From positions 31,684 through 95,683 of the forward strand of contig JAFQYM010000030.1 in assembly GCA_017406465.1 (NCBI GenBank): a DNA stretch of 64,000 nt, read 5' to 3'. Under the pieces are notes generated by a model. That model ran no database searches. It was not told the DNA's origin and saw only the letters and a list, made by a program, of their open reading frames with translations. Shown here piece after piece: positions 31,926 to 39,328 of the stretch (position 1 is its first letter; the number at the start of each line of letters is the position of its first letter). The DNA comes from Kiritimatiellia bacterium. Its GTDB lineage: Bacteria > Verrucomicrobiota > Kiritimatiellia > RFP12 > UBA1067. Position numbers and translations under genes: made by a program.

Positions 31926-33302
31926 ATGGCGAAACGTCCAGAACTGCTGATAACGTCAGGGCCCATGGCCGGCACGCGATTCGAGGTCGGCGCCGGCGGC
32001 GTGCGCCTCGGCCGCTCGTCCTCTAACGACGTGTGCATACCCGACGAGGAGCTTTCCCGCAACCACTGCCTCTTCGAGCAGTCTGGCGAAGCGGGCATAC
32101 GCGTGACGGACCTCGCGAGCGCGAACGGCACGTTCGTCAATGGCGAGCAGCTTGGCTCTGATTCATGCGAGCTCAAGGCGGGCGACTCAATCGAGGTCGG
32201 CTCGACTGCGATCAGCGTCATCGGCGAAGAGCCGCCTCCAGCGCAGCACCATGCCACGCCTGTCGCCAGGGGCGCGTCGATAGACCTCGGCCTCGGCACG
32301 ACCCCGGCCGCCGCTTCGCAGGACGTGGCGGCGTCTCGGCCTTCCGCGAGGAAGCCGAGCGGCCATCCTCGCGCGATGCTGGCCAATGTGCTGTGGGTCG
32401 TCGCCGCGCTGATCGTGGCGGCCGCGATAGCCGTCGTCCTCTGCGCGCCGCGCGACTCCGAAAAGCCCGTCATCTCCCCCGTGGCGGACGAGAAGCCCGA
32501 TAAGAAGCTAATCTCGCTTTGCTACGAGAAGGTCGAGGCCGACGTCGCGCGTGTGTTCAGCTACAGGATGGACGTCGACAGCTCCGGCATCCTTCATGTC
32601 GCGTTCGACGACGTGCCCGGCGAGAATCGCCACGTCGACAAGAAGGCCAAGCTCTCGGAAAAGGCGATGAAGAGGATTCTCGAGGTTTTAGACAGGCCCG
32701 GGTTCGCCGCGCTCGACGACGCGTACACGGGTGCCTCCGTCGAGGACGAGAACGAGCTCAAGAGCTTCAGGATCCGCGTCGTCCGCTGGAACAGCATAAA
32801 GGACGTCCTCGTCGAGAACACCCAGGAGCCCGACGCGTTTCGCGAGGTGCGGGAGGCGCTCGAGGCGTTCTCTCGAAACGAACTTGGCATTTGGGCGATA
32901 CAGTACTCTAAGGAAAAGCTGATCGAGCTCAGCGAAGAGAGCGCGAAGGTCGGCGACACCAAGTGGGAGGACCGCGAAGTGGAGTACGGCAACCTCAGCG
33001 CCTCCGTCAAGGCCTACAAGGACGCTCTCTTCTACCTTGAGACTGTAAATCCCAAGCCGGAGAGCTTCGCGACCGTGAAGGAAAGTCTCGCGCGCTCCGA
33101 GGCGGAGCTCAAGCAGCGCTACGAGGACCAGCGCTTCCTCGTCGACAAGGCGATCAACCTCGGCGACTGGGAGGTTGCGCAGTCCGAGCTCAAGATACTG
33201 TGCGAGCTCGTTCCCGAGAGAGACGACCCGCGCCATGCCGAGGCAAACGCGCGTCTCGTCGACGTTGAAAACCGCATGAAGAAGGCGAGGGGTGGAAAAT
33301 GA
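31926..33302 (+). CDS. FHA-domain single-pass membrane protein
   Basis: FHA motifs LGRSS.ND, LSRNH, DLASANGTFVNG; TM segment VLWVVAALIVAAAIAVVL; helical C-terminal ectodomain. Confidence 0.85.
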   Translation: MAKRPELLITSGPMAGTRFEVGAGGVRLGRSSSNDVCIPDEELSRNHCLFEQSGEAGIRVTDLASANGTFVNGEQLGSDSCELKAGDSIEVGSTAISVIGEEPPPAQHHATPVARGASIDLGLGTTPAAASQDVAASRPSARKPSGHPRAMLANVLWVVAALIVAAAIAVVLCAPRDSEKPVISPVADEKPDKKLISLCYEKVEADVARVFSYRMDVDSSGILHVAFDDVPGENRHVDKKAKLSEKAMKRILEVLDRPGFAALDDAYTGASVEDENELKSFRIRVVRWNSIKDVLVENTQEPDAFREVREALEAFSRNELGIWAIQYSKEKLIELSEESAKVGDTKWEDREVEYGNLSASVKAYKDALFYLETVNPKPESFATVKESLARSEAELKQRYEDQRFLVDKAINLGDWEVAQSELKILCELVPERDDPRHAEANARLVDVENRMKKARGGK

Positions 33303-34600
33303 GGGGAATCATTCTTTCGATTGCGCTCGCCGCGCTCACCGCGTTCGCGGACGAGTCGAAGGCGATACGCTGCGACTTCACGAGCCAGCCCGAAGGCGCC
33401 ACCGTGATTGTCGATGGCATGACGCGCGGCGTCACGCCGCTTACGCTCTATGATCTTGCCCCCGGGCCGCGCTACGTCAGGTTCGAGCTGGCAAGCTACG
33501 AAGGCATAGACGAGTTCATGTTCCTCCGCGAAGGCGGGGCCGTAAGCAAGAATGCCGTGCTGAGCCCCGTGAAGGGGATACTGCTCCTTTTGACCGAGCC
33601 AACGGGCTGCGACGTCTCTCTTGACGGCGTTTCGTTCGGCAAGACGCCGCGTCTCATCACGTCTCTCGACGCAAAGGACACGTATCGGCTTCTCGTGCAG
33701 AAGCCCGGCTACCAGCCGCGTACTGTCGAAGTGAAGTTCAACGGGCGTACGCCGCTCGTGAAGAACGAATCCCTCGTCATCGATTCCGGCATTATTGAGG
33801 TGACGAGCGAGCCGGCCGGTGCGGAAGTAACGGTGAACGGGCATCCGCGCGGCAGTACGCCCATGAAGGTCGAGGGTGTTCCCAAGGGGCGCGCGACGGT
33901 CGAGATCAAGAAGAAGGGGTTTGAAGACGAATCGCGCGAGCTTGCGATCGTTGCCGGCGAGAGCCAGACGCTGTTCGTGAAGCTCACCGGGCTTCCGGGC
34001 ACGATGTCGCTCTCGTCCGTTCCCGACGGGGCGAGGTTCTACGTCAACGACAGGCCCGAGGGCAAGGGGCCGATATCGCTTACGGGTCTCAAGCCGGGCT
34101 CCTACACGATCCGCGTCGAGAAGGAAGGCTTTGCCACGGCGACGAAGACCGTCACGCTCGAGAACGGCGGCGTGATCGTCGAGGAGTTTCGGCTTGACAA
34201 CGTTATGGGTCGCATAGAGGTGAGGACGATTCCTTCTGACGTCGAAGTTCTGCTTGACGGCAGCCGCGTCGGCACGACGAAGTCGAAGGGCGACGATGGC
34301 GACGCAAGCGAGGTGTTCGCGATAGAGAACGTGCGCGAGGGCGAGCATACCCTCGTGCTGAAGCGCGAAGGGTACGCGGACGCGACGAAGCACCCAGTCG
34401 TCGAAAACCGCAAGACGCAGACCGTCAACGTCCGGCTCAAGCGTGTCTTCACGCCGAACGTCGAGATCACGACAGACGGCGGCGTGCACCGCGGCGTTTT
34501 GATTTCCAACACGGCGAACGGCGTGGAGGTGGAAGTCTCGCTCGGCATAAACCGCACGTTCCCGCATAACGAGATCAGGAAGATCGAGTTCATCAAGTAG
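33299..34600 (+). CDS. Secreted PEGA-repeat protein
   Basis: Signal peptide; about five repeats of S.P.GA.V.VDG...G.TP...L.PG...V...K.GY. Confidence 0.88.
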   Translation: MRGIILSIALAALTAFADESKAIRCDFTSQPEGATVIVDGMTRGVTPLTLYDLAPGPRYVRFELASYEGIDEFMFLREGGAVSKNAVLSPVKGILLLLTEPTGCDVSLDGVSFGKTPRLITSLDAKDTYRLLVQKPGYQPRTVEVKFNGRTPLVKNESLVIDSGIIEVTSEPAGAEVTVNGHPRGSTPMKVEGVPKGRATVEIKKKGFEDESRELAIVAGESQTLFVKLTGLPGTMSLSSVPDGARFYVNDRPEGKGPISLTGLKPGSYTIRVEKEGFATATKTVTLENGGVIVEEFRLDNVMGRIEVRTIPSDVEVLLDGSRVGTTKSKGDDGDASEVFAIENVREGEHTLVLKREGYADATKHPVVENRKTQTVNVRLKRVFTPNVEITTDGGVHRGVLISNTANGVEVEVSLGINRTFPHNEIRKIEFIK

Positions 34601-35443
34601 GTGAAACGCCGTCTCGACATCCTTCTTGTGGAGCGCGGCCTTGCCGAGAGCCGCACGCGGGCGCAGGCGCTCGTTATGGAGGGCAAGGTCCGCGTCGCGG
34701 GGCAGACCGAATACAAGCCCTCGCGCCAGGTAGACGACGAAACGCCGGTCGAGATAGAGTCTCCGCCGCGTTTCGTTTCGCGCGGAGGCGAGAAGCTTGA
34801 GGGCGCGTTCGAGCTGTGGGGGGCGTATCCCCCGAGCGAAGCGAGTCGCCGAAGGCGATGCCCTAGCAGGGGTGGGAATGGGGAATCCTCCTCCGCCAAG
34901 GCTACGGAGGACAAGCGGGGAATGGATTTGAGCGCCGAGGGGAAGACATGCCTCGACGTTGGCTCTTCCACGGGAGGGTTCACCGACTGCCTTCTCCAGC
35001 ATGGCGCAAGGCGCGTAATGTCAGTCGACGTCGGCACGAACCAGCTCGCCTACAAGCTCAGGACCGATTCCCGCGTGTGGGTCAGGGAGAACTTCAACGC
35101 CCGCTACATGAAGCCCGAGGACCTGCCTGAAGTCCCGGCGCTCGCGGTCACGGACGTCTCCTTCATTTCGCTCAAGCTCATTCTCCCGCCGATATGCGGC
35201 GTACTCGCACCCGGTAGCGAAATCGTCGCGCTTATAAAGCCGCAGTTCGAGGTCGGAAAGGGCAACGCCCCCGGAGGGCTCGTCCGTGACGAGAACCTTC
35301 GGCTCGCCGCGCGCGACGAAATCATCCGCTTTGCGAAGGAGGAACTGGGACTCGAGCTCCTCGGCCTTGCCGAATCTCCAATCAAAGGGCGCGAGATGGG
35401 GAACGTCGAGTATCTCTCCTGGTGGCGCAAGCCCATTTCATGA
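34601..35443 (+). CDS. tlyA: TlyA-family rRNA 2'-O-methyltransferase with ~30-aa in-frame insertion
   Basis: KRRLDILLVERGL (S4-like), FVSRGGEKL, LDVGSSTGGFTDCLLQ.GA, DVSFISL, LIKPQFE, GNVEYL; GTG start. Confidence 0.9.
   Translation: MKRRLDILLVERGLAESRTRAQALVMEGKVRVAGQTEYKPSRQVDDETPVEIESPPRFVSRGGEKLEGAFELWGAYPPSEASRRRRCPSRGGNGESSSAKATEDKRGMDLSAEGKTCLDVGSSTGGFTDCLLQHGARRVMSVDVGTNQLAYKLRTDSRVWVRENFNARYMKPEDLPEVPALAVTDVSFISLKLILPPICGVLAPGSEIVALIKPQFEVGKGNAPGGLVRDENLRLAARDEIIRFAKEELGLELLGLAESPIKGREMGNVEYLSWWRKPIS
34824..34925 (+). repeat. Composite REP-like element inserted in tlyA
   Basis: CGTATCCCCCGAGCGAAGCGAG + hairpin TCGCC-GAA-GGCGA + CTAGCAGGGGTGGGAATGGGGAAT + second hairpin TCCTCCG-CCAAGGCTA-CGGAGGA. 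Confidence 0.75.
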
Positions 35444-35455
35444 AAGCCCGATTTT

Positions 35456-35464
35456 TGATATACT
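35456..35464 (+). promoter_or_regulatory. Extended -10 for efp
   Basis: TGATATACT; SD AGGAG before ATG 35505. Confidence 0.55.
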
Positions 35465-35504
35465 ATTCTCGTTTTTAACCATTAAAGGAAACAGGAGTCA
35501 AGAA

Positions 35505-36080
35505 ATGGGCGAAGTCATCGGAGCCGGAGAGCTGCACAAGGGTGTGAAGCTTCTTATCGACGGAGAGCCGTGGGAAATCACGGAGTTCTCGTTCTCTAAG
35601 CCGGGCAAGGGCCAGGCGATATACAACTGCAAGCTGCGCAACATGATGACAGGCGGCGGCTGCACAAAGAGCTACCGTTCGGGCGACAAGTTCGAGAAGC
35701 CCGAGCTCGTGCAGATGAGTGTGACCTACTCCTACGACGACGGCACGGCGTTCGTCTTCACTGACGACAACTTCGAGGAGATCCGCGTCAGCTACGACGT
35801 CATGGGCGACAAGAAGTACTTCCTCATGGACGAGATGGAAGTCAAGGCGCTGTTCTTCAACGACAAGGTCATCGGCGTGGACCTCCCGCAGCTCGTCGAG
35901 CGCAAGGTCGTCAAGGTCGAGCCCGGCGTCAAGGGCAACACCGCGTCCGGCAAGGTGACGAAGCCGGCGACCGTCGAGGGCGGTTATACGCTGGCCGTCC
36001 CGCTCTTCATCAACGAGGGCGACGTGATTCGCATCAATACGGAGACGGGCGAGTACAACGACCGCACTTCGACGAAGTAA
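35505..36080 (+). CDS. efp: Translation elongation factor P
   Basis: KPGKGQA loop, YSYDDG, EPGVKGNTA, KPATVEGG, VPLFINEGD.IRINT.TGEY..R. Confidence 0.96.
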   Translation: MGEVIGAGELHKGVKLLIDGEPWEITEFSFSKPGKGQAIYNCKLRNMMTGGGCTKSYRSGDKFEKPELVQMSVTYSYDDGTAFVFTDDNFEEIRVSYDVMGDKKYFLMDEMEVKALFFNDKVIGVDLPQLVERKVVKVEPGVKGNTASGKVTKPATVEGGYTLAVPLFINEGDVIRINTETGEYNDRTSTK

Positions 36081-36109
36081 GGCCGCCTTTTAAGGGCCGG
36101 AGACCAGCC

Positions 36110-38230
36110 ATGCCGGAAAAGAAGAGACGCATAGTCGTTACGAGCGCGCTTCCATACGCCAACGGTGACATCCACCTCGGGCACCTTGTGGAATACATCC
36201 AGACCGACTTCTGGGTGCGATTCCAGAAGCTGCGCGGGAACGATTGCGTCTATGTCTGCGCGGACGACACGCATGGCACGCCCGTGATGATCCGCGCCCG
36301 CAAGGAGGGAATCTCGCCAGAAGACCTCATCGCGCGCACGCACGCGATACATCTCAAGGACTTCACCGACTTCCAGGTCTCTTTCGACAACTACTACTCG
36401 ACGAACTCGCCAGAGAACAGGGAGTTTTCCGAGCAGTTCTTCGCTGCGATGGAGAAGTCGGGCGGCATCACGCGCAAGACCTCGCCCCAGCTCTACTGCG
36501 AGCATTGCAAGATGTTCCTCCCCGACCGCTTCGTCAAGGGCGCGTGCCCTAAGTGCGGCGCAGAGGGGCAGTATGGCGACAGCTGCGACAAGTGCGGCTC
36601 TACCTATGGCGCCGAGGAGCTTGGGAATCCAAAGTGCACGACCTGCGGCGGAACGCCCGTCGTGAAGGAGTCTGAGCACCTCTACTTCGAGCTCGAGCCG
36701 CAGCACGACTTCCTCGAGAAGTGGATTCCGGGACATACGACGAGCGACGTCTCGAACAAGCTCCTCGAGTGGTTCAAGGAGCCGCTTCGCGGCTGGTGCA
36801 TCTCGCGCGACGCTCCGTACTTCGGCTTCGAGATCCCCGGCTACAAGGACAAGTTCTTCTATGTCTGGGTCGATGCGCCGATCGGCTATCTTGCCTCGCT
36901 TAGGAATTGGTGCGAGAAGAACGGCGAGAAGTTCGAGGACTGGTGGCAGAACTCGGACGCCGAGCGCTATCATTTCATCGGCAAGGACATCATTAGGTTC
37001 CACTGCCTCTTCTGGCCTGGGATGCTGAACGTTGCCGGCTTCCAGCAGCCGAACAAGATCTTCGTCCACGGCTTTCTCACCGTCAACGGCGAGAAGATGT
37101 CGAAGTCGAAGGGCACTTTCGTCAACGCGAGGACATACCTCGACCATCTCCCGCCCGAGGCGCTTAGGTACTACTACGCGGCAAAGCTCGGCGGCACGAC
37201 CGACGACATGGACTTGAATCTCGCGGATTTTGTCCAGCGCGTGAACTCCGATCTCGTCGGCAAGATCACTAACATCGCCTCTCGCTCTGCGCAGATGCTC
37301 CAGAAGAAGCTCGACGGCACGCTTGCGAGTCTCGCGGGGCACGACGAGGAGCTGGCGCTTTTGAAGAAGCTCCGCGACGGCGGAGAGACGATTGCACGCT
37401 ACTACGAGGATCGCCGCTTCAACCTGGCGGTCGTCGAAATCTGCCGCCTCGCTGACGCGGCGAACGAGTATTTTGACCGTAAGGAACCGTGGAAGACGGT
37501 CAAGACAGATGCAGAGGCGACTCGCGTCGTCCTCACGGCCGCGCTCAACGCGTTCCGCATCCTGGCGATTTACCTAAAGCCCATTCTTCCAGTCTATGCC
37601 GACAAGGCGATGAAGCTCTTTGGCGAGACGGAGTGGACATGGGATTCCCGCGACACGGCCATTGAAGGCATCGCGCTTGGGCCATACGAATATCTCGCGA
37701 GCCGCATCGACTCAAAACAGGTTGACGCGATGATTGCCGCGGCTACGGTGAAGCCCGCCGACTCTGGCGAAGTCGCCCACGAGTCGAGGGCGAGCAAGAA
37801 CAAGGGGAACGGGGAACGTATCCCCCGAGCGAAGCGAGCCGCGCAAGAGGTCGCTAGAGGGGTGGGAACGGGGAACAAGGAGGTCTCGCCGCTCAAGGCA
37901 GAGGTCGCGTTCCCGGACTTCGAGAAGCTCGACCTCCGGGTCGGCGTCGTCGAGAGCTGCGAGATAGTGCCGAAGAGCTCGAAGCTGCTCAAGTTTGTTC
38001 TCGATGCGGGCTCGCTCGGAAAGCGCACCATCTTCTCGGGAATCCGCGGAGCGTATCCCGACCCAGCTGCGCTCGTCGGGAAGGAAGTCGTCTTCGTCGC
38101 GAACCTCGCGCCGAGGAAGATGTCGGTCGGCGTCAGCGAAGGCATGATTCTCTTCGCAGGCGAACCGGGTGTCTGCGGAGGAGTTGTCTCGCCCGCATCA
38201 TGCGCGGGCGGCGGAACAAGCGTAACCTGA
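36110..38230 (+). CDS. metG: Methionine--tRNA ligase with C-terminal tRNA-binding domain
   Basis: ALPYANGDIHLGH, CADDTHG, Zn-knuckle CxxC pairs, KMSKSKG, F.DFEKLDLRVG, NLAPRKM. Confidence 0.97.
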   Translation: MPEKKRRIVVTSALPYANGDIHLGHLVEYIQTDFWVRFQKLRGNDCVYVCADDTHGTPVMIRARKEGISPEDLIARTHAIHLKDFTDFQVSFDNYYSTNSPENREFSEQFFAAMEKSGGITRKTSPQLYCEHCKMFLPDRFVKGACPKCGAEGQYGDSCDKCGSTYGAEELGNPKCTTCGGTPVVKESEHLYFELEPQHDFLEKWIPGHTTSDVSNKLLEWFKEPLRGWCISRDAPYFGFEIPGYKDKFFYVWVDAPIGYLASLRNWCEKNGEKFEDWWQNSDAERYHFIGKDIIRFHCLFWPGMLNVAGFQQPNKIFVHGFLTVNGEKMSKSKGTFVNARTYLDHLPPEALRYYYAAKLGGTTDDMDLNLADFVQRVNSDLVGKITNIASRSAQMLQKKLDGTLASLAGHDEELALLKKLRDGGETIARYYEDRRFNLAVVEICRLADAANEYFDRKEPWKTVKTDAEATRVVLTAALNAFRILAIYLKPILPVYADKAMKLFGETEWTWDSRDTAIEGIALGPYEYLASRIDSKQVDAMIAAATVKPADSGEVAHESRASKNKGNGERIPRAKRAAQEVARGVGTGNKEVSPLKAEVAFPDFEKLDLRVGVVESCEIVPKSSKLLKFVLDAGSLGKRTIFSGIRGAYPDPAALVGKEVVFVANLAPRKMSVGVSEGMILFAGEPGVCGGVVSPASCAGGGTSVT
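37804..37876 (+). repeat. REP-like element inserted in the metG interdomain linker
   Basis: GGGGAAC x2, then CGTATCCCCCGAGCGAAGCGAG (37817-37838, identical to tlyA 34824-34845), then CTAGAGGGGTGGGAACGGGGAAC. Confidence 0.75.
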
Positions 38231-38233
38231 ACG

Positions 38234-39328
38234 ATGATTGACTTCACCGACAGCCAGAAGAAGACGATAGCGGCGGGAATTACGGTCCTGTCTTTGTCGC
38301 TTGTGTTCGCCTTTACTGCCTTTGTGCTGTGGGTTGTCTTCAAGGTGCTTTCGTTCGCGTCGTCCGCGATAATCCCCGTAGTGCTGGGCTTTTTCCTGTC
38401 GCTCTTTTTCAAACCCTACTACGAATGGTGGCAGAAGCAGGTAAGGAACCCGACGCTTGCGCTTGCCGCGATGCTGCTGACGATATTCGTTCCGCTTGGG
38501 TTCTTCCTCTGGTATGCTGGCGCTGTCACGATCGACCAGATATCGAATCTTATACGGCAGGGACCGACGATGGCCAACCATGTCGTCGAGTGGTTCAAGG
38601 CGACGTTCCCGAAGTCGGTGTCGCTTCTCGACCAGCTCGGCGTGCGCTATGAGAACTTAGGAGATTTCTACACGAACTACGGCGGCGCTGCGCTTAAGGC
38701 GGGTTCTGGCGTGCTCAAGTTCGTCGGAGGCATTCTTTCCGCGCTTGTGACGCTGATCTTTTTCGTCTTCTTCCTGACGTCCAAACCGCGGCGCGGCAGC
38801 GACATCGTCTCGCAGCTCACGTTCCTAAAGCCCGAGACGCGCGACTTCGCCGCCGAGCAGATCGACGCGTTCGTCGAGATTCTCGTCAGCTTCTTCCAGC
38901 GCCAGACGGTCATCTGCCTCATTGAGGGCGTGTACTACGGACTCGGCTTTGCGCTCGTCGGTCTTCCCTACGGCTTTCTCATTGGCTTCATGCTCGGCGT
39001 CCTCAATCTCGTTCCGCTCTTCGGCACTGTCGTGTGTCTTCCCGTTGCGATGCCGCTCGCCTATTTTGGCGTCGGCGGGTCGATGACGCGGCTCATCCTC
39101 GTCCTCGTCGTGTGGGCGATCGGCCAGGTCCTCGACGGCTATCTCATCACGCCGAAGATCCAGGGCAACAAGACCGGGCTCGGCTACGCGGGCGTCATCT
39201 TCTCGTTTTTCTTCTGGGGGATCGTCCTCGGTCCTGTCCTCGGGCTTCTCCTTGCGATTCCGCTTTCGGCGTTCTGCGTCGTGCTGTGGCGCGCGTTAAA
39301 GTCTAAGTACATCCGTCCCGTCGTCTGA
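38234..39328 (+). CDS. AI-2E (PerM) family transporter
   Basis: About 8 hydrophobic segments; LNLVPLFG, QVLDGYLITPKIQG, G..GLLLAIP. Confidence 0.88.
   Translation: MIDFTDSQKKTIAAGITVLSLSLVFAFTAFVLWVVFKVLSFASSAIIPVVLGFFLSLFFKPYYEWWQKQVRNPTLALAAMLLTIFVPLGFFLWYAGAVTIDQISNLIRQGPTMANHVVEWFKATFPKSVSLLDQLGVRYENLGDFYTNYGGAALKAGSGVLKFVGGILSALVTLIFFVFFLTSKPRRGSDIVSQLTFLKPETRDFAAEQIDAFVEILVSFFQRQTVICLIEGVYYGLGFALVGLPYGFLIGFMLGVLNLVPLFGTVVCLPVAMPLAYFGVGGSMTRLILVLVVWAIGQVLDGYLITPKIQGNKTGLGYAGVIFSFFFWGIVLGPVLGLLLAIPLSAFCVVLWRALKSKYIRPVV

Follow-up and report, generated by a model that had tools for sequence, protein, structure and literature searches.

It is a textbook rarity for selfish repeats to be maintained within essential genes, and palindromic elements of Rickettsia are the usual example. 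Here we describe a family of very small hairpin-forming DNA units that came to light in two housekeeping genes, tlyA and metG, of a 64,000-nucleotide stretch of Kiritimatiellia DNA (the window; C58:31684-95683), whose source genome (G000) is a metagenome-assembled genome (MAG), 83% complete and in 102 contigs. Rickettsia palindromic elements (RPEs) are 100-150 bp long, occur only in Rickettsia and encode one conserved peptide each (Ogata et al. 2000, reviewed in PMC10969869). Some repetitive extragenic palindromic (REP) sequences are located within genes, those for repair in particular (Di Nocera et al. 2013, PMC3733652); REPs are recognized by a conserved tag, GTAG or CGTC, that stays unpaired at one of their ends (PMC3733652). 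By analogy, the behaviour of the unit described here appears closest to that of RPEs and intragenic REPs, and it differs from known cases in its very small, codon-multiple size, in its fixed landing phase within runs of a GGGGAAC heptamer and in the nature of these runs, which take the place of loops in dozens of housekeeping genes, in frame and with a sense bias. With RPEs it has behaviour in common, not homology: small hairpin-forming repeats lie in frame in unrelated housekeeping genes, where they contribute a peptide at tolerant positions, and also between genes. Unlike RPEs, the units are 45 or 48 nucleotides (nt) long (15-16 codons), are read in three frames, occur in a heptamer-run context, leave no target duplication and reside in free-living gut Kiritimatiellae; membership of the RPE family is implausible, as judged by size (45 vs 100-150 nt) and host phylum, not by sequence. 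We consider it probable, at about 0.78, that the inserts represent a small mobile DNA element, non-autonomous and codon-neutral, that lands in heptamer runs and is probably translated.

The preliminary description of this DNA had reported an identical 22-mer with differing centres in tlyA and metG, and had taken it for one element read in two frames. The exact match is borne out: the 22-mer (CGTATCCCCCGAGCGAAGCGAG) occurs on the plus strand at 34824-34845 and 37817-37838, with matches in 0/100 dinucleotide-preserving shuffles and a chance expectation of 0. Both copies are held by long open reading frames (ORFs), tlyA at 34601-35443 and metG at 36110-38230, and the translations agree with the use of different frames, the tlyA copy reading ...WGAYPPSEASRRRRCPSRGGNGE... 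and the metG copy ...GNGERIPRAKRAAQEVARGVGTGN... / ...KGNGERIPRAKRAAQEVARGVGTGNKE..., with YPPSEAS encoded by the 22-mer in TlyA and RIPRAKR in MetG. The central segments are unlike (TCGCCGAAGGCGA plus TGCCCTAGCA in tlyA, CCGCGCAAGAGG plus TCGCTAGA in metG) and lead into a common end, GGGGTGGGAA(T/C)GGGGAA. The proposed location at domain or loop positions also agrees with Pfam, which puts both inserts between domains: in TlyA between S4 (residues 3-46) and FtsJ (110-275), where the TIGR00478 match splits, and in MetG in the linker between Anticodon_3 (412-515) and tRNA_bind (609-685). The features of the two loci are as follows.

34601..35443, plus strand: tlyA (TlyA-family rRNA 2'-O-methyltransferase), host gene 1; an ORF with a TIGR00478 match (E = 9e-66) that is split around the insert.
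34817..34825, plus strand: degenerate G-run TGGGGGGCG, left side of the tlyA landing site; the empty site of relative G003 reads TGGGGGACGGGGAAGGGGGATT, a decayed heptamer run.
34826..34873, plus strand: putatively mobile 48-nt unit in tlyA; boundaries from filled/empty pairs.
34874..34886, plus strand: heptamer run GGGAAT GGGGAAT, right side of the tlyA landing site; from the sequence and the flank logo.
34887..34923, plus strand: second nested module in tlyA, a hairpin TCCTCCG-CCAAGGCTA-CGGAGGA followed by GGGGAAT; from comparison with the near-conspecific MAG L082.
36110..38230, plus strand: metG (methionine--tRNA ligase), host gene 2; an ORF with an NF001100 match (E = 4.7e-261).
37804..37818, plus strand: heptamer run GGGGAAC GGGGAAC G, left side of the metG landing site; from the sequence, the empty allele of G003 reading AAGGGGAAC|GGGAC.
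37819..37863, plus strand: putatively mobile 45-nt unit in metG; boundaries from filled/empty pairs, the L082 allele being identical.
37864..37876, plus strand: heptamer run GGGAAC GGGGAAC, right side of the metG landing site; from the sequence and the flank logo.

The tlyA unit is made up of T-ATCCCC, a CGAGCGAAGCGAG mini-hairpin, a TCGCC-GAA-GGCGA hairpin, TGCCCTAGCA and GGGG-T (translation YPPSEASRRRRCPSRG), and this 48-nt variant is found in identical form at 10 distinct sites; the metG unit comprises T-ATCCCC, CGAGCGAAGCGAG, a CCGC-GCAA-GAGG hairpin with one mismatch, TCGCTAGA and GGGG-T (translation IPRAKRAAQEVARGV). The GGGGTGGGAAYGGGGAA tail, earlier assigned to the element, lies mostly outside the unit and is mostly the start of a GGGGAAC run; GGGAAYGGGGAAY behind the unit, and in metG also GGGGAACGGGGAACG ahead of it, are likewise parts of such runs. 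The second tlyA module is missing from the otherwise filled tlyA allele of L082, and a similar module is held at C25:-:59371. Two long minus-strand ORFs that overlap the real genes, at 33119-35002 (627 aa) and 35984-37342 (452 aa), are spurious, as is typical at such G+C (codon scores 0.05-0.07 vs 0.24-0.35).

Comparison with orthologous alleles revealed that these sites are empty in relatives, which disposes of the possibility that the peptides are simply common to homologues. The tlyA insert is absent in 28/29 genus relatives, and G046 carries at this loop a heptamer array of another kind, (TCAAACN)5 (L040). At the metG site the closest relative, G003 (92% amino-acid identity), is empty and reads AAGGGGAAC|GGGACGCTCGAG, with 54 additional nt there in G000 and 66 in L082. 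The most exact pair came from proS, where G000 has a plain GGGGAAC run and G003 the run plus exactly 45 nt, TATCCCCCGAG...GAGGGGT (TATCCCC...GGGGT), placed between GGGGAACG and GGGAAT in an alignment that cannot be shifted by one base and with zero duplication. A uvrA pair, filled in JAZSLQ contigs (L121/L173) and empty in G000 (C55), has the same boundaries as proS, and the filled/empty pairs of metG and tlyA fit them as well. Because of these four sets of pairs we define the unit as T-ATCCCC...GGGG-T, without target-site duplication. Its insertion into tlyA, metG and further essential genes is recent.

The favourite landing site is GGGGAACG^GGGAAY, entered in one polarity; relative to the run's G-rich strand, the orientation of units is 28:0. 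A G always follows the unit and C-purine precedes it in most copies; among 44 distinct non-run flanks the only common feature is C-R^...^G. At C51:33342 one unit is nested within the hairpin loop of another, with its T...T ends kept. In the metG linker, relatives G011, G021 and G001 (L013, L026, L027) carry other heptamer runs, (GGGGCCA)n and (GGGAAGA)n; the tlyA and metG loops are recurrent hot spots for heptamer runs.

Alignment of ~80 copies gave a common layout of an invariant ATCCCCCGAGCGNAGCGAG, a variable hairpin, an 8-10-nt joiner and GGGGTG, in which the order of parts is T ATCCCC, a C-GA-GC-GNA-GC-GA-G mini-hairpin, a 4-6-bp hairpin (hairpin 2), a joiner (CTCAATGC, TCGCTAGA, TGCCCTAGCA and others) and GGGG T. 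Nearly all copies (77/79) are either 45 nt (50 copies) or 48 nt (27 copies) long, the two others being 44 and 49 nt. Hairpin 2 occurs with ten distinct, perfectly complementary stems (CCGC/GCGG, CGCC/GGCG, TCGCC/GGCGA, CTGC/GCAG, CATTGC/GCAATG, TCCGC/GCGGA, CTCC/GGAG, CACC/GGTG, CGCT/AGCG and TCGC/GCGA), which were counted directly, the MAFFT unit alignment not being structure-consistent across 3- and 4-nt loops. All four bases are seen at loop position N of GCGNAGC, and in a widespread subfamily (GAACGAAGT) the G-C pair of the mini-hairpin is replaced by A-T. On the basis of the compensatory stems, the free loop base and the A-T subfamily, the hairpin structure is under selection, at the level of DNA or RNA. 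Single-sequence folding predicted structures no more stable than those of shuffles (z -0.7 to +0.3), and the structural argument is therefore one of covariation only. The unit had been called palindromic, a term that suits it only loosely: it consists of two unequal hairpins with a closing CCCC/GGGG.

A sister module, TAACCGCCCC...GCCGAGCGAAGCGAGTGCCGA (also TAACCGCCCCTTG...GCCGAGCGAAGCGAGTGCCGA), has the GAGCGAAGCGAG mini-hairpin in common with the unit. G000 has nine copies of it, each exactly 66 nt long and open in 2/3 frames; they land at GGGGAACG^...^GGGAAC, five of them in GGGGAAC runs at the G^GGGAAC phase.

66-nt module copies in G000: C14:-:96777, C21:-:30934, C57:-:1056, C94:-:22372, C94:-:61059, and one each on C32, C55, C100 and C10.

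Genome-wide, G000 has 13 copies at ≤3 mismatches (9 exact; a reversed control pattern gave 0), so that the family extends well past the two copies from which it was first described. Its 19-nt core is present in 16/25 sampled genomes of the genus, and 16 genomes from other families of the order yielded two weak two-mismatch matches, both in one genome. Scanning prokaryotes at one genome per species gave ~80 genuine copies, every one of them in gut or rumen MAGs of the Kiritimatiellae type from several studies (cattle, yak, goat, sheep and Hadza people), a few of these bins being labelled Lentisphaerae, Verrucomicrobia or otherwise, along with chance matches and an unrelated Rokubacteria repeat. 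Seven matches occurred in viral contigs, of which two are ordinary naked copies (units not embedded in runs) and the others chance matches or other hairpins. With this distribution, and with all three frames in use and no conserved peptide, the data support a dispersed, lineage-restricted DNA repeat, as the preliminary description had held in placing conservation at the DNA level. A Rfam covariance-model search of 34500-38300 (E ≤ 10) gave nothing relevant, nor did a literature search with the unit sequences and for Kiritimatiellae repeats, in keeping with the view that the family is undescribed.

Two side observations concern the core. An identical 19-mer, ATCCCCCGAGCGGAGCGAG, lies in the tandem ~60-66-nt GAGCG-rich repeats of Rokubacteria (L081, L088, L095, L106, L110, L122, L137, L145, L157), and the 19-mer also forms a minimal ATCCCC-CGAGCGNAGCGAG-GGGGTG hairpin in Halococcus (L104) and in Actinomycetota MAGs L092 and L135; either homology or convergence could account for these occurrences.

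The heptamer runs in which the units land are themselves a dispersed repeat. G000 contains ~36 run blocks of 2-7 heptamers each, most of them without a hairpin unit, while permuted control heptamers gave 10-21 loose matches in the same scan. According to a self-trained codon model, ~28 of the ~36 blocks are in frame within coding sequence whose sense strand is the G-rich one, and only 1-2 are antisense. Their hosts include ProRS (proS), UvrA, a GH2 beta-galactosidase, UDP-glucose 6-dehydrogenase, a fucosidase, an ABC-F ATPase and a hydrogenase subunit. The number of run matches within the genus ranges from 0 (in 10/31 genomes) to 151 (G021), G022 has 34 run matches and zero hairpin units, and close relatives differ by 21 nt in run length. 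Elsewhere in the phylum (120 genomes), several runs were found only in G096, of another genus in the same family, and two more genomes had one or two two-mismatch matches. Ortholog alignments show that the runs are dispersed inserts that replaced ancestral variable surface loops or inter-domain linkers: a loop of UDP-glucose dehydrogenase reads ILNDRAKHRF in G003, ILNGGTGNGERGIRF in G000 and ILNDERGTGSGELGTGPKF in G021, and was hit independently in the latter two; in GH2, KKNADGTMI became KKGNGEPGTGNGLI in three species; and linkers of ProRS and UvrA are likewise replaced by runs. A GC-skew test of replication strand had only 12 eligible runs, and the co-orientation of 8/10 with |skew| > 0.02 is confounded by that of genes generally (85-89%).

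Cyanobacteria reportedly harbour dispersed tandem G/C-rich heptanucleotides, the short tandemly repeated repetitive (STRR) sequences that Mazel and colleagues are said to have described in 1990 from a restricted lineage. The GGGGAAC runs resemble them as tandem G/C-rich heptamers dispersed over many loci of a restricted lineage. To our knowledge STRR sequences are mostly intergenic, whereas about three quarters of the runs described here lie in frame in genes, with a sense bias, and serve as landing pads for hairpin units.

We then considered what the inserts do to their host genes. The reading frame is preserved in every intact host gene. Insertions never shift it because the unit lengths of 45, 48 and 66 nt are divisible by three and the heptamer is free of stops in every frame on both strands. 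All three frames are used: YPPSEAS in tlyA and on C83, C91 and C92, RIPRAKR in metG and on C73, and VSPERSE in G003 proS; no in-gene copy lies in the TAG-containing frame of its own subtype. In-frame antisense copies, in G021 purF and G003 uvrA, read ...LLGHRLRRLASLGGY... Roughly half of the unit copies are intragenic, run-embedded ones lying almost all in ORFs and naked ones mostly between genes. Such constraints on frame would serve no purpose in an insert that was removed or skipped, and translation is therefore the best reading: most likely, judging from the sequences, the inserts are translated, not spliced or bypassed.

One lead towards a frame shift or bypass, at C66:27894, was rejected, since it proved to be a ~650-nt deletion junction in a pseudogene, a DUF4091-like paralogue of a large family. 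At C66:27454-28085 the ~650 nt were lost exactly at a run-plus-unit insert, with the 3' part out of frame, and at that site G022 has no more than a heptamer remnant. The repeats appear to promote deletions.

Exact ends, absence of duplication, fixed polarity and insertion into hairpin loops and G-rich runs fit transposition of the HUH/Y1 type, as in the REP/RAYT and IS200/IS605 systems. Under the reading we favour, of a mobile element, heptamer runs have replaced surface loops and linkers of many housekeeping proteins of the genus and serve as landing pads for the unit, which would insert in a single polarity and with no target duplication, after C-purine and before G. Copies arriving in a stop-free frame at a tolerant loop would survive and would probably be translated as 15-35 extra hydrophilic residues. 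Movement could occur by single-strand cut-and-paste or copying, through an HUH/Y1 enzyme (RAYT or IS200/IS605-like) acting in trans, an attribution that we make tentatively and regard as possible but doubtful. G000 encodes four RAYT-like HUH/Y1 proteins of 270-375 aa (C54:11158, C92:1211, C18:2523 and C14:79758), which have the HUH and Y motifs and match NF047646 at 57-68 bits, below its cut-off of 80.

The relation to known mobile repeats is accordingly partial. Like REPs, BIMEs and REPINs, the units are short dispersed imperfect palindromes with a defined polarity and no target duplication, in genomes that also contain RAYT-like genes. Unlike the classical REP (20-40 nt, one hairpin), they are slightly longer, at 45/48 nt, and less symmetric, with two unequal hairpins. 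REPs are predominantly extragenic, whereas roughly half of these copies are intragenic. The joiner has CTAC, CTAG, CTAT or CAAT, and GTAG appears on the complementary strand in the CTAC subtype alone, so that there is no clear GTAG/CGTC tag consensus, nor a cognate RAYT flanked by or near the unit. The label of a REP/MITE-like family therefore holds in so far as this is an undescribed dispersed repeat and fails for a strict miniature inverted-repeat transposable element (MITE), the unit having neither terminal inverted repeats nor target-site duplication, with ends TATCCCC... and ...GGGGT. Asymmetric ends, sub-terminal hairpins, strand-specific insertion by short sequence and lack of target-site duplication recall the palindrome-associated transposable elements (PATEs) derived from IS200/IS605. 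Tested against IS200/IS605 behaviour, the unit displays fixed polarity and no duplication, with a target consensus only of C-R^G or GGGGAACG^GGGAAY. PATEs differ in having a TnpA/TnpB parent, for which no cognate was found here, and in size, known PATEs being far longer than the unit, whose apparent target amounts to no more than C-R^G and the context of the run.

Several observations weigh against a mobile element. The RAYT or IS200-type transposase anticipated by the preliminary description was not found in linkage with the unit: the RAYT-like genes are flanked by different inverted hairpins of their own (AGAAGGGTCTGACCCTTCTGTAG, GTAG-tagged, or GGGGACAGACCCCACGAAAGC) and none by the unit, no RAYT-like match lies within 8 kb of 115 unit-bearing loci, and the presence of Y1 genes does not track that of the unit across the genus. 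A search for an autonomous TnpA parent with the same ends found no gene enclosed by separate left and right halves, and the Y1 matches are unlinked. Copy numbers are modest (0-24 per genome; G000 has 13 and G021 as many as 24), all genomes are MAGs, in which activity at the population level would go unseen, the reading does not explain where the heptamer runs come from, and exact presence or absence without duplication inside runs could also come from recombination between runs. The units might indeed spread and be lost without any transposase, by homologous or microhomology-mediated recombination, gene conversion or template switching between GGGGAAC runs, with the run as vehicle and the unit as passenger. 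Such exchange would be in line with the in-run filled/empty pairs, which differ by exactly the unit between identical heptamers, with the 28:0 polarity, with the existence of runs without units (as in G022), with the 21-nt variation in run length and with the failure to find a linked transposase. However, the 44 distinct non-run contexts, with the same T...T ends and only C-R^G in common, and the unit nested in the hairpin loop of another offer no flanking homology for conversion, and the arrival of runs in new genes would go unexplained. We judge recombination alone to be quite unlikely.

Selection by the host could account for the compensatory changes in hairpin 2 and the nearly invariant 19-mer if the unit were a structured RNA or single-stranded DNA element, such as a translational pause, an mRNA-stability or terminator element or a protein-binding site, rather than selfish DNA; the mostly sense orientation of in-gene copies, the inserts at domain junctions and the naked copies between genes would also agree. 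Yet near-identical species differ in presence or absence at orthologous sites, the purF and uvrA copies are antisense and in frame, the folds are no stabler than shuffles, Rfam families do not match, and the runs are missing from 10/31 genus genomes and the core from at least 9/25 sampled, all of which makes a host function very improbable. That the insert is excised like a tiny intron, or skipped through programmed ribosomal bypass between matching GGGGAAC codons, is less credible still, to the point of being nearly negligible. In the known cases of programmed bypass, in T4 gene 60 and at the byps of Magnusiomyces mitochondria, take-off and landing sites accompany a hairpin, and the direct heptamer repeats around the unit may by analogy resemble such sites, a likeness that serves only as a lead. 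A bypass gap, however, breaks the frame or holds stops, whereas all units here, in each length class, are multiples of three and every in-gene copy is open in the host frame, constraints that removal would render needless; the sole frame break is the deletion pseudogene, and neither tlyA nor metG has a stop codon after the putative take-off codon.

A further set of arrays surrounds genes for small GxxExxY/PDDEXK_3 nucleases, found in G000 at C55:85741-86076 and C91:6997-7317 and at loci L244-L261. Inverted arrays of 7-8-nt units (such as CACGGATT, ACAGGATT, CAGGAGA, CGCAGAG and CACGAAAA) bracket 12/14 of these loci, and the same array families also flank many naked hairpin units; GGGGAAC arrays were seen at 0/14, and a link of these genes to the GGGGAAC runs is suggestive only. 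In the G000 C55:83497 region, (GGGGTCA)n and (GGGGTTA)n runs flank a 66-nt module ~2 kb upstream of a GxxExxY gene. The GxxExxY gene with its inverted arrays may constitute an undescribed selfish gene cassette. A bolder proposal, which we consider unlikely, is a two-tier selfish-DNA system adapted to proteins, in which 7-8-nt arrays are joined by codon-multiple hairpin mini-transposons that home to a fixed phase of the array. In its first tier, arrays, including those that bracket GxxExxY/PDDEXK_3 genes, would be seeded into loops of housekeeping genes by an array-writing or break-repair process; in its second, the 45/48/66-nt units, which would be among the smallest mobile units, would insert without target duplication. 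The enzyme, for which the small PD-(D/E)XK nuclease and a divergent HUH protein are candidates, would be one not yet recognized as a transposase, and the lengths and stop-free composition would represent adaptation to coding DNA, beyond a survivorship filter.

Returning to the small mobile element that we favour, on account of the repeat family, empty sites, exact boundaries without target-site duplication, frame neutrality, loop positions and hairpin covariation, its presence would extend RPE-like behaviour to a free-living gut and rumen lineage. G-rich runs on the sense strand are potential G-quadruplex or slippage hazards in essential genes, and the inserts inflate and fragment marker-gene alignments in MAG phylogenomics. 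The family also makes several matters testable: which enzyme moves REP-like hairpins without a RAYT of their own, whether mobile DNA can evolve "codon neutrality", given three length classes that are all multiples of three, and how new loop peptides may enter conserved enzymes such as MetRS, ProRS, UvrA and TlyA.

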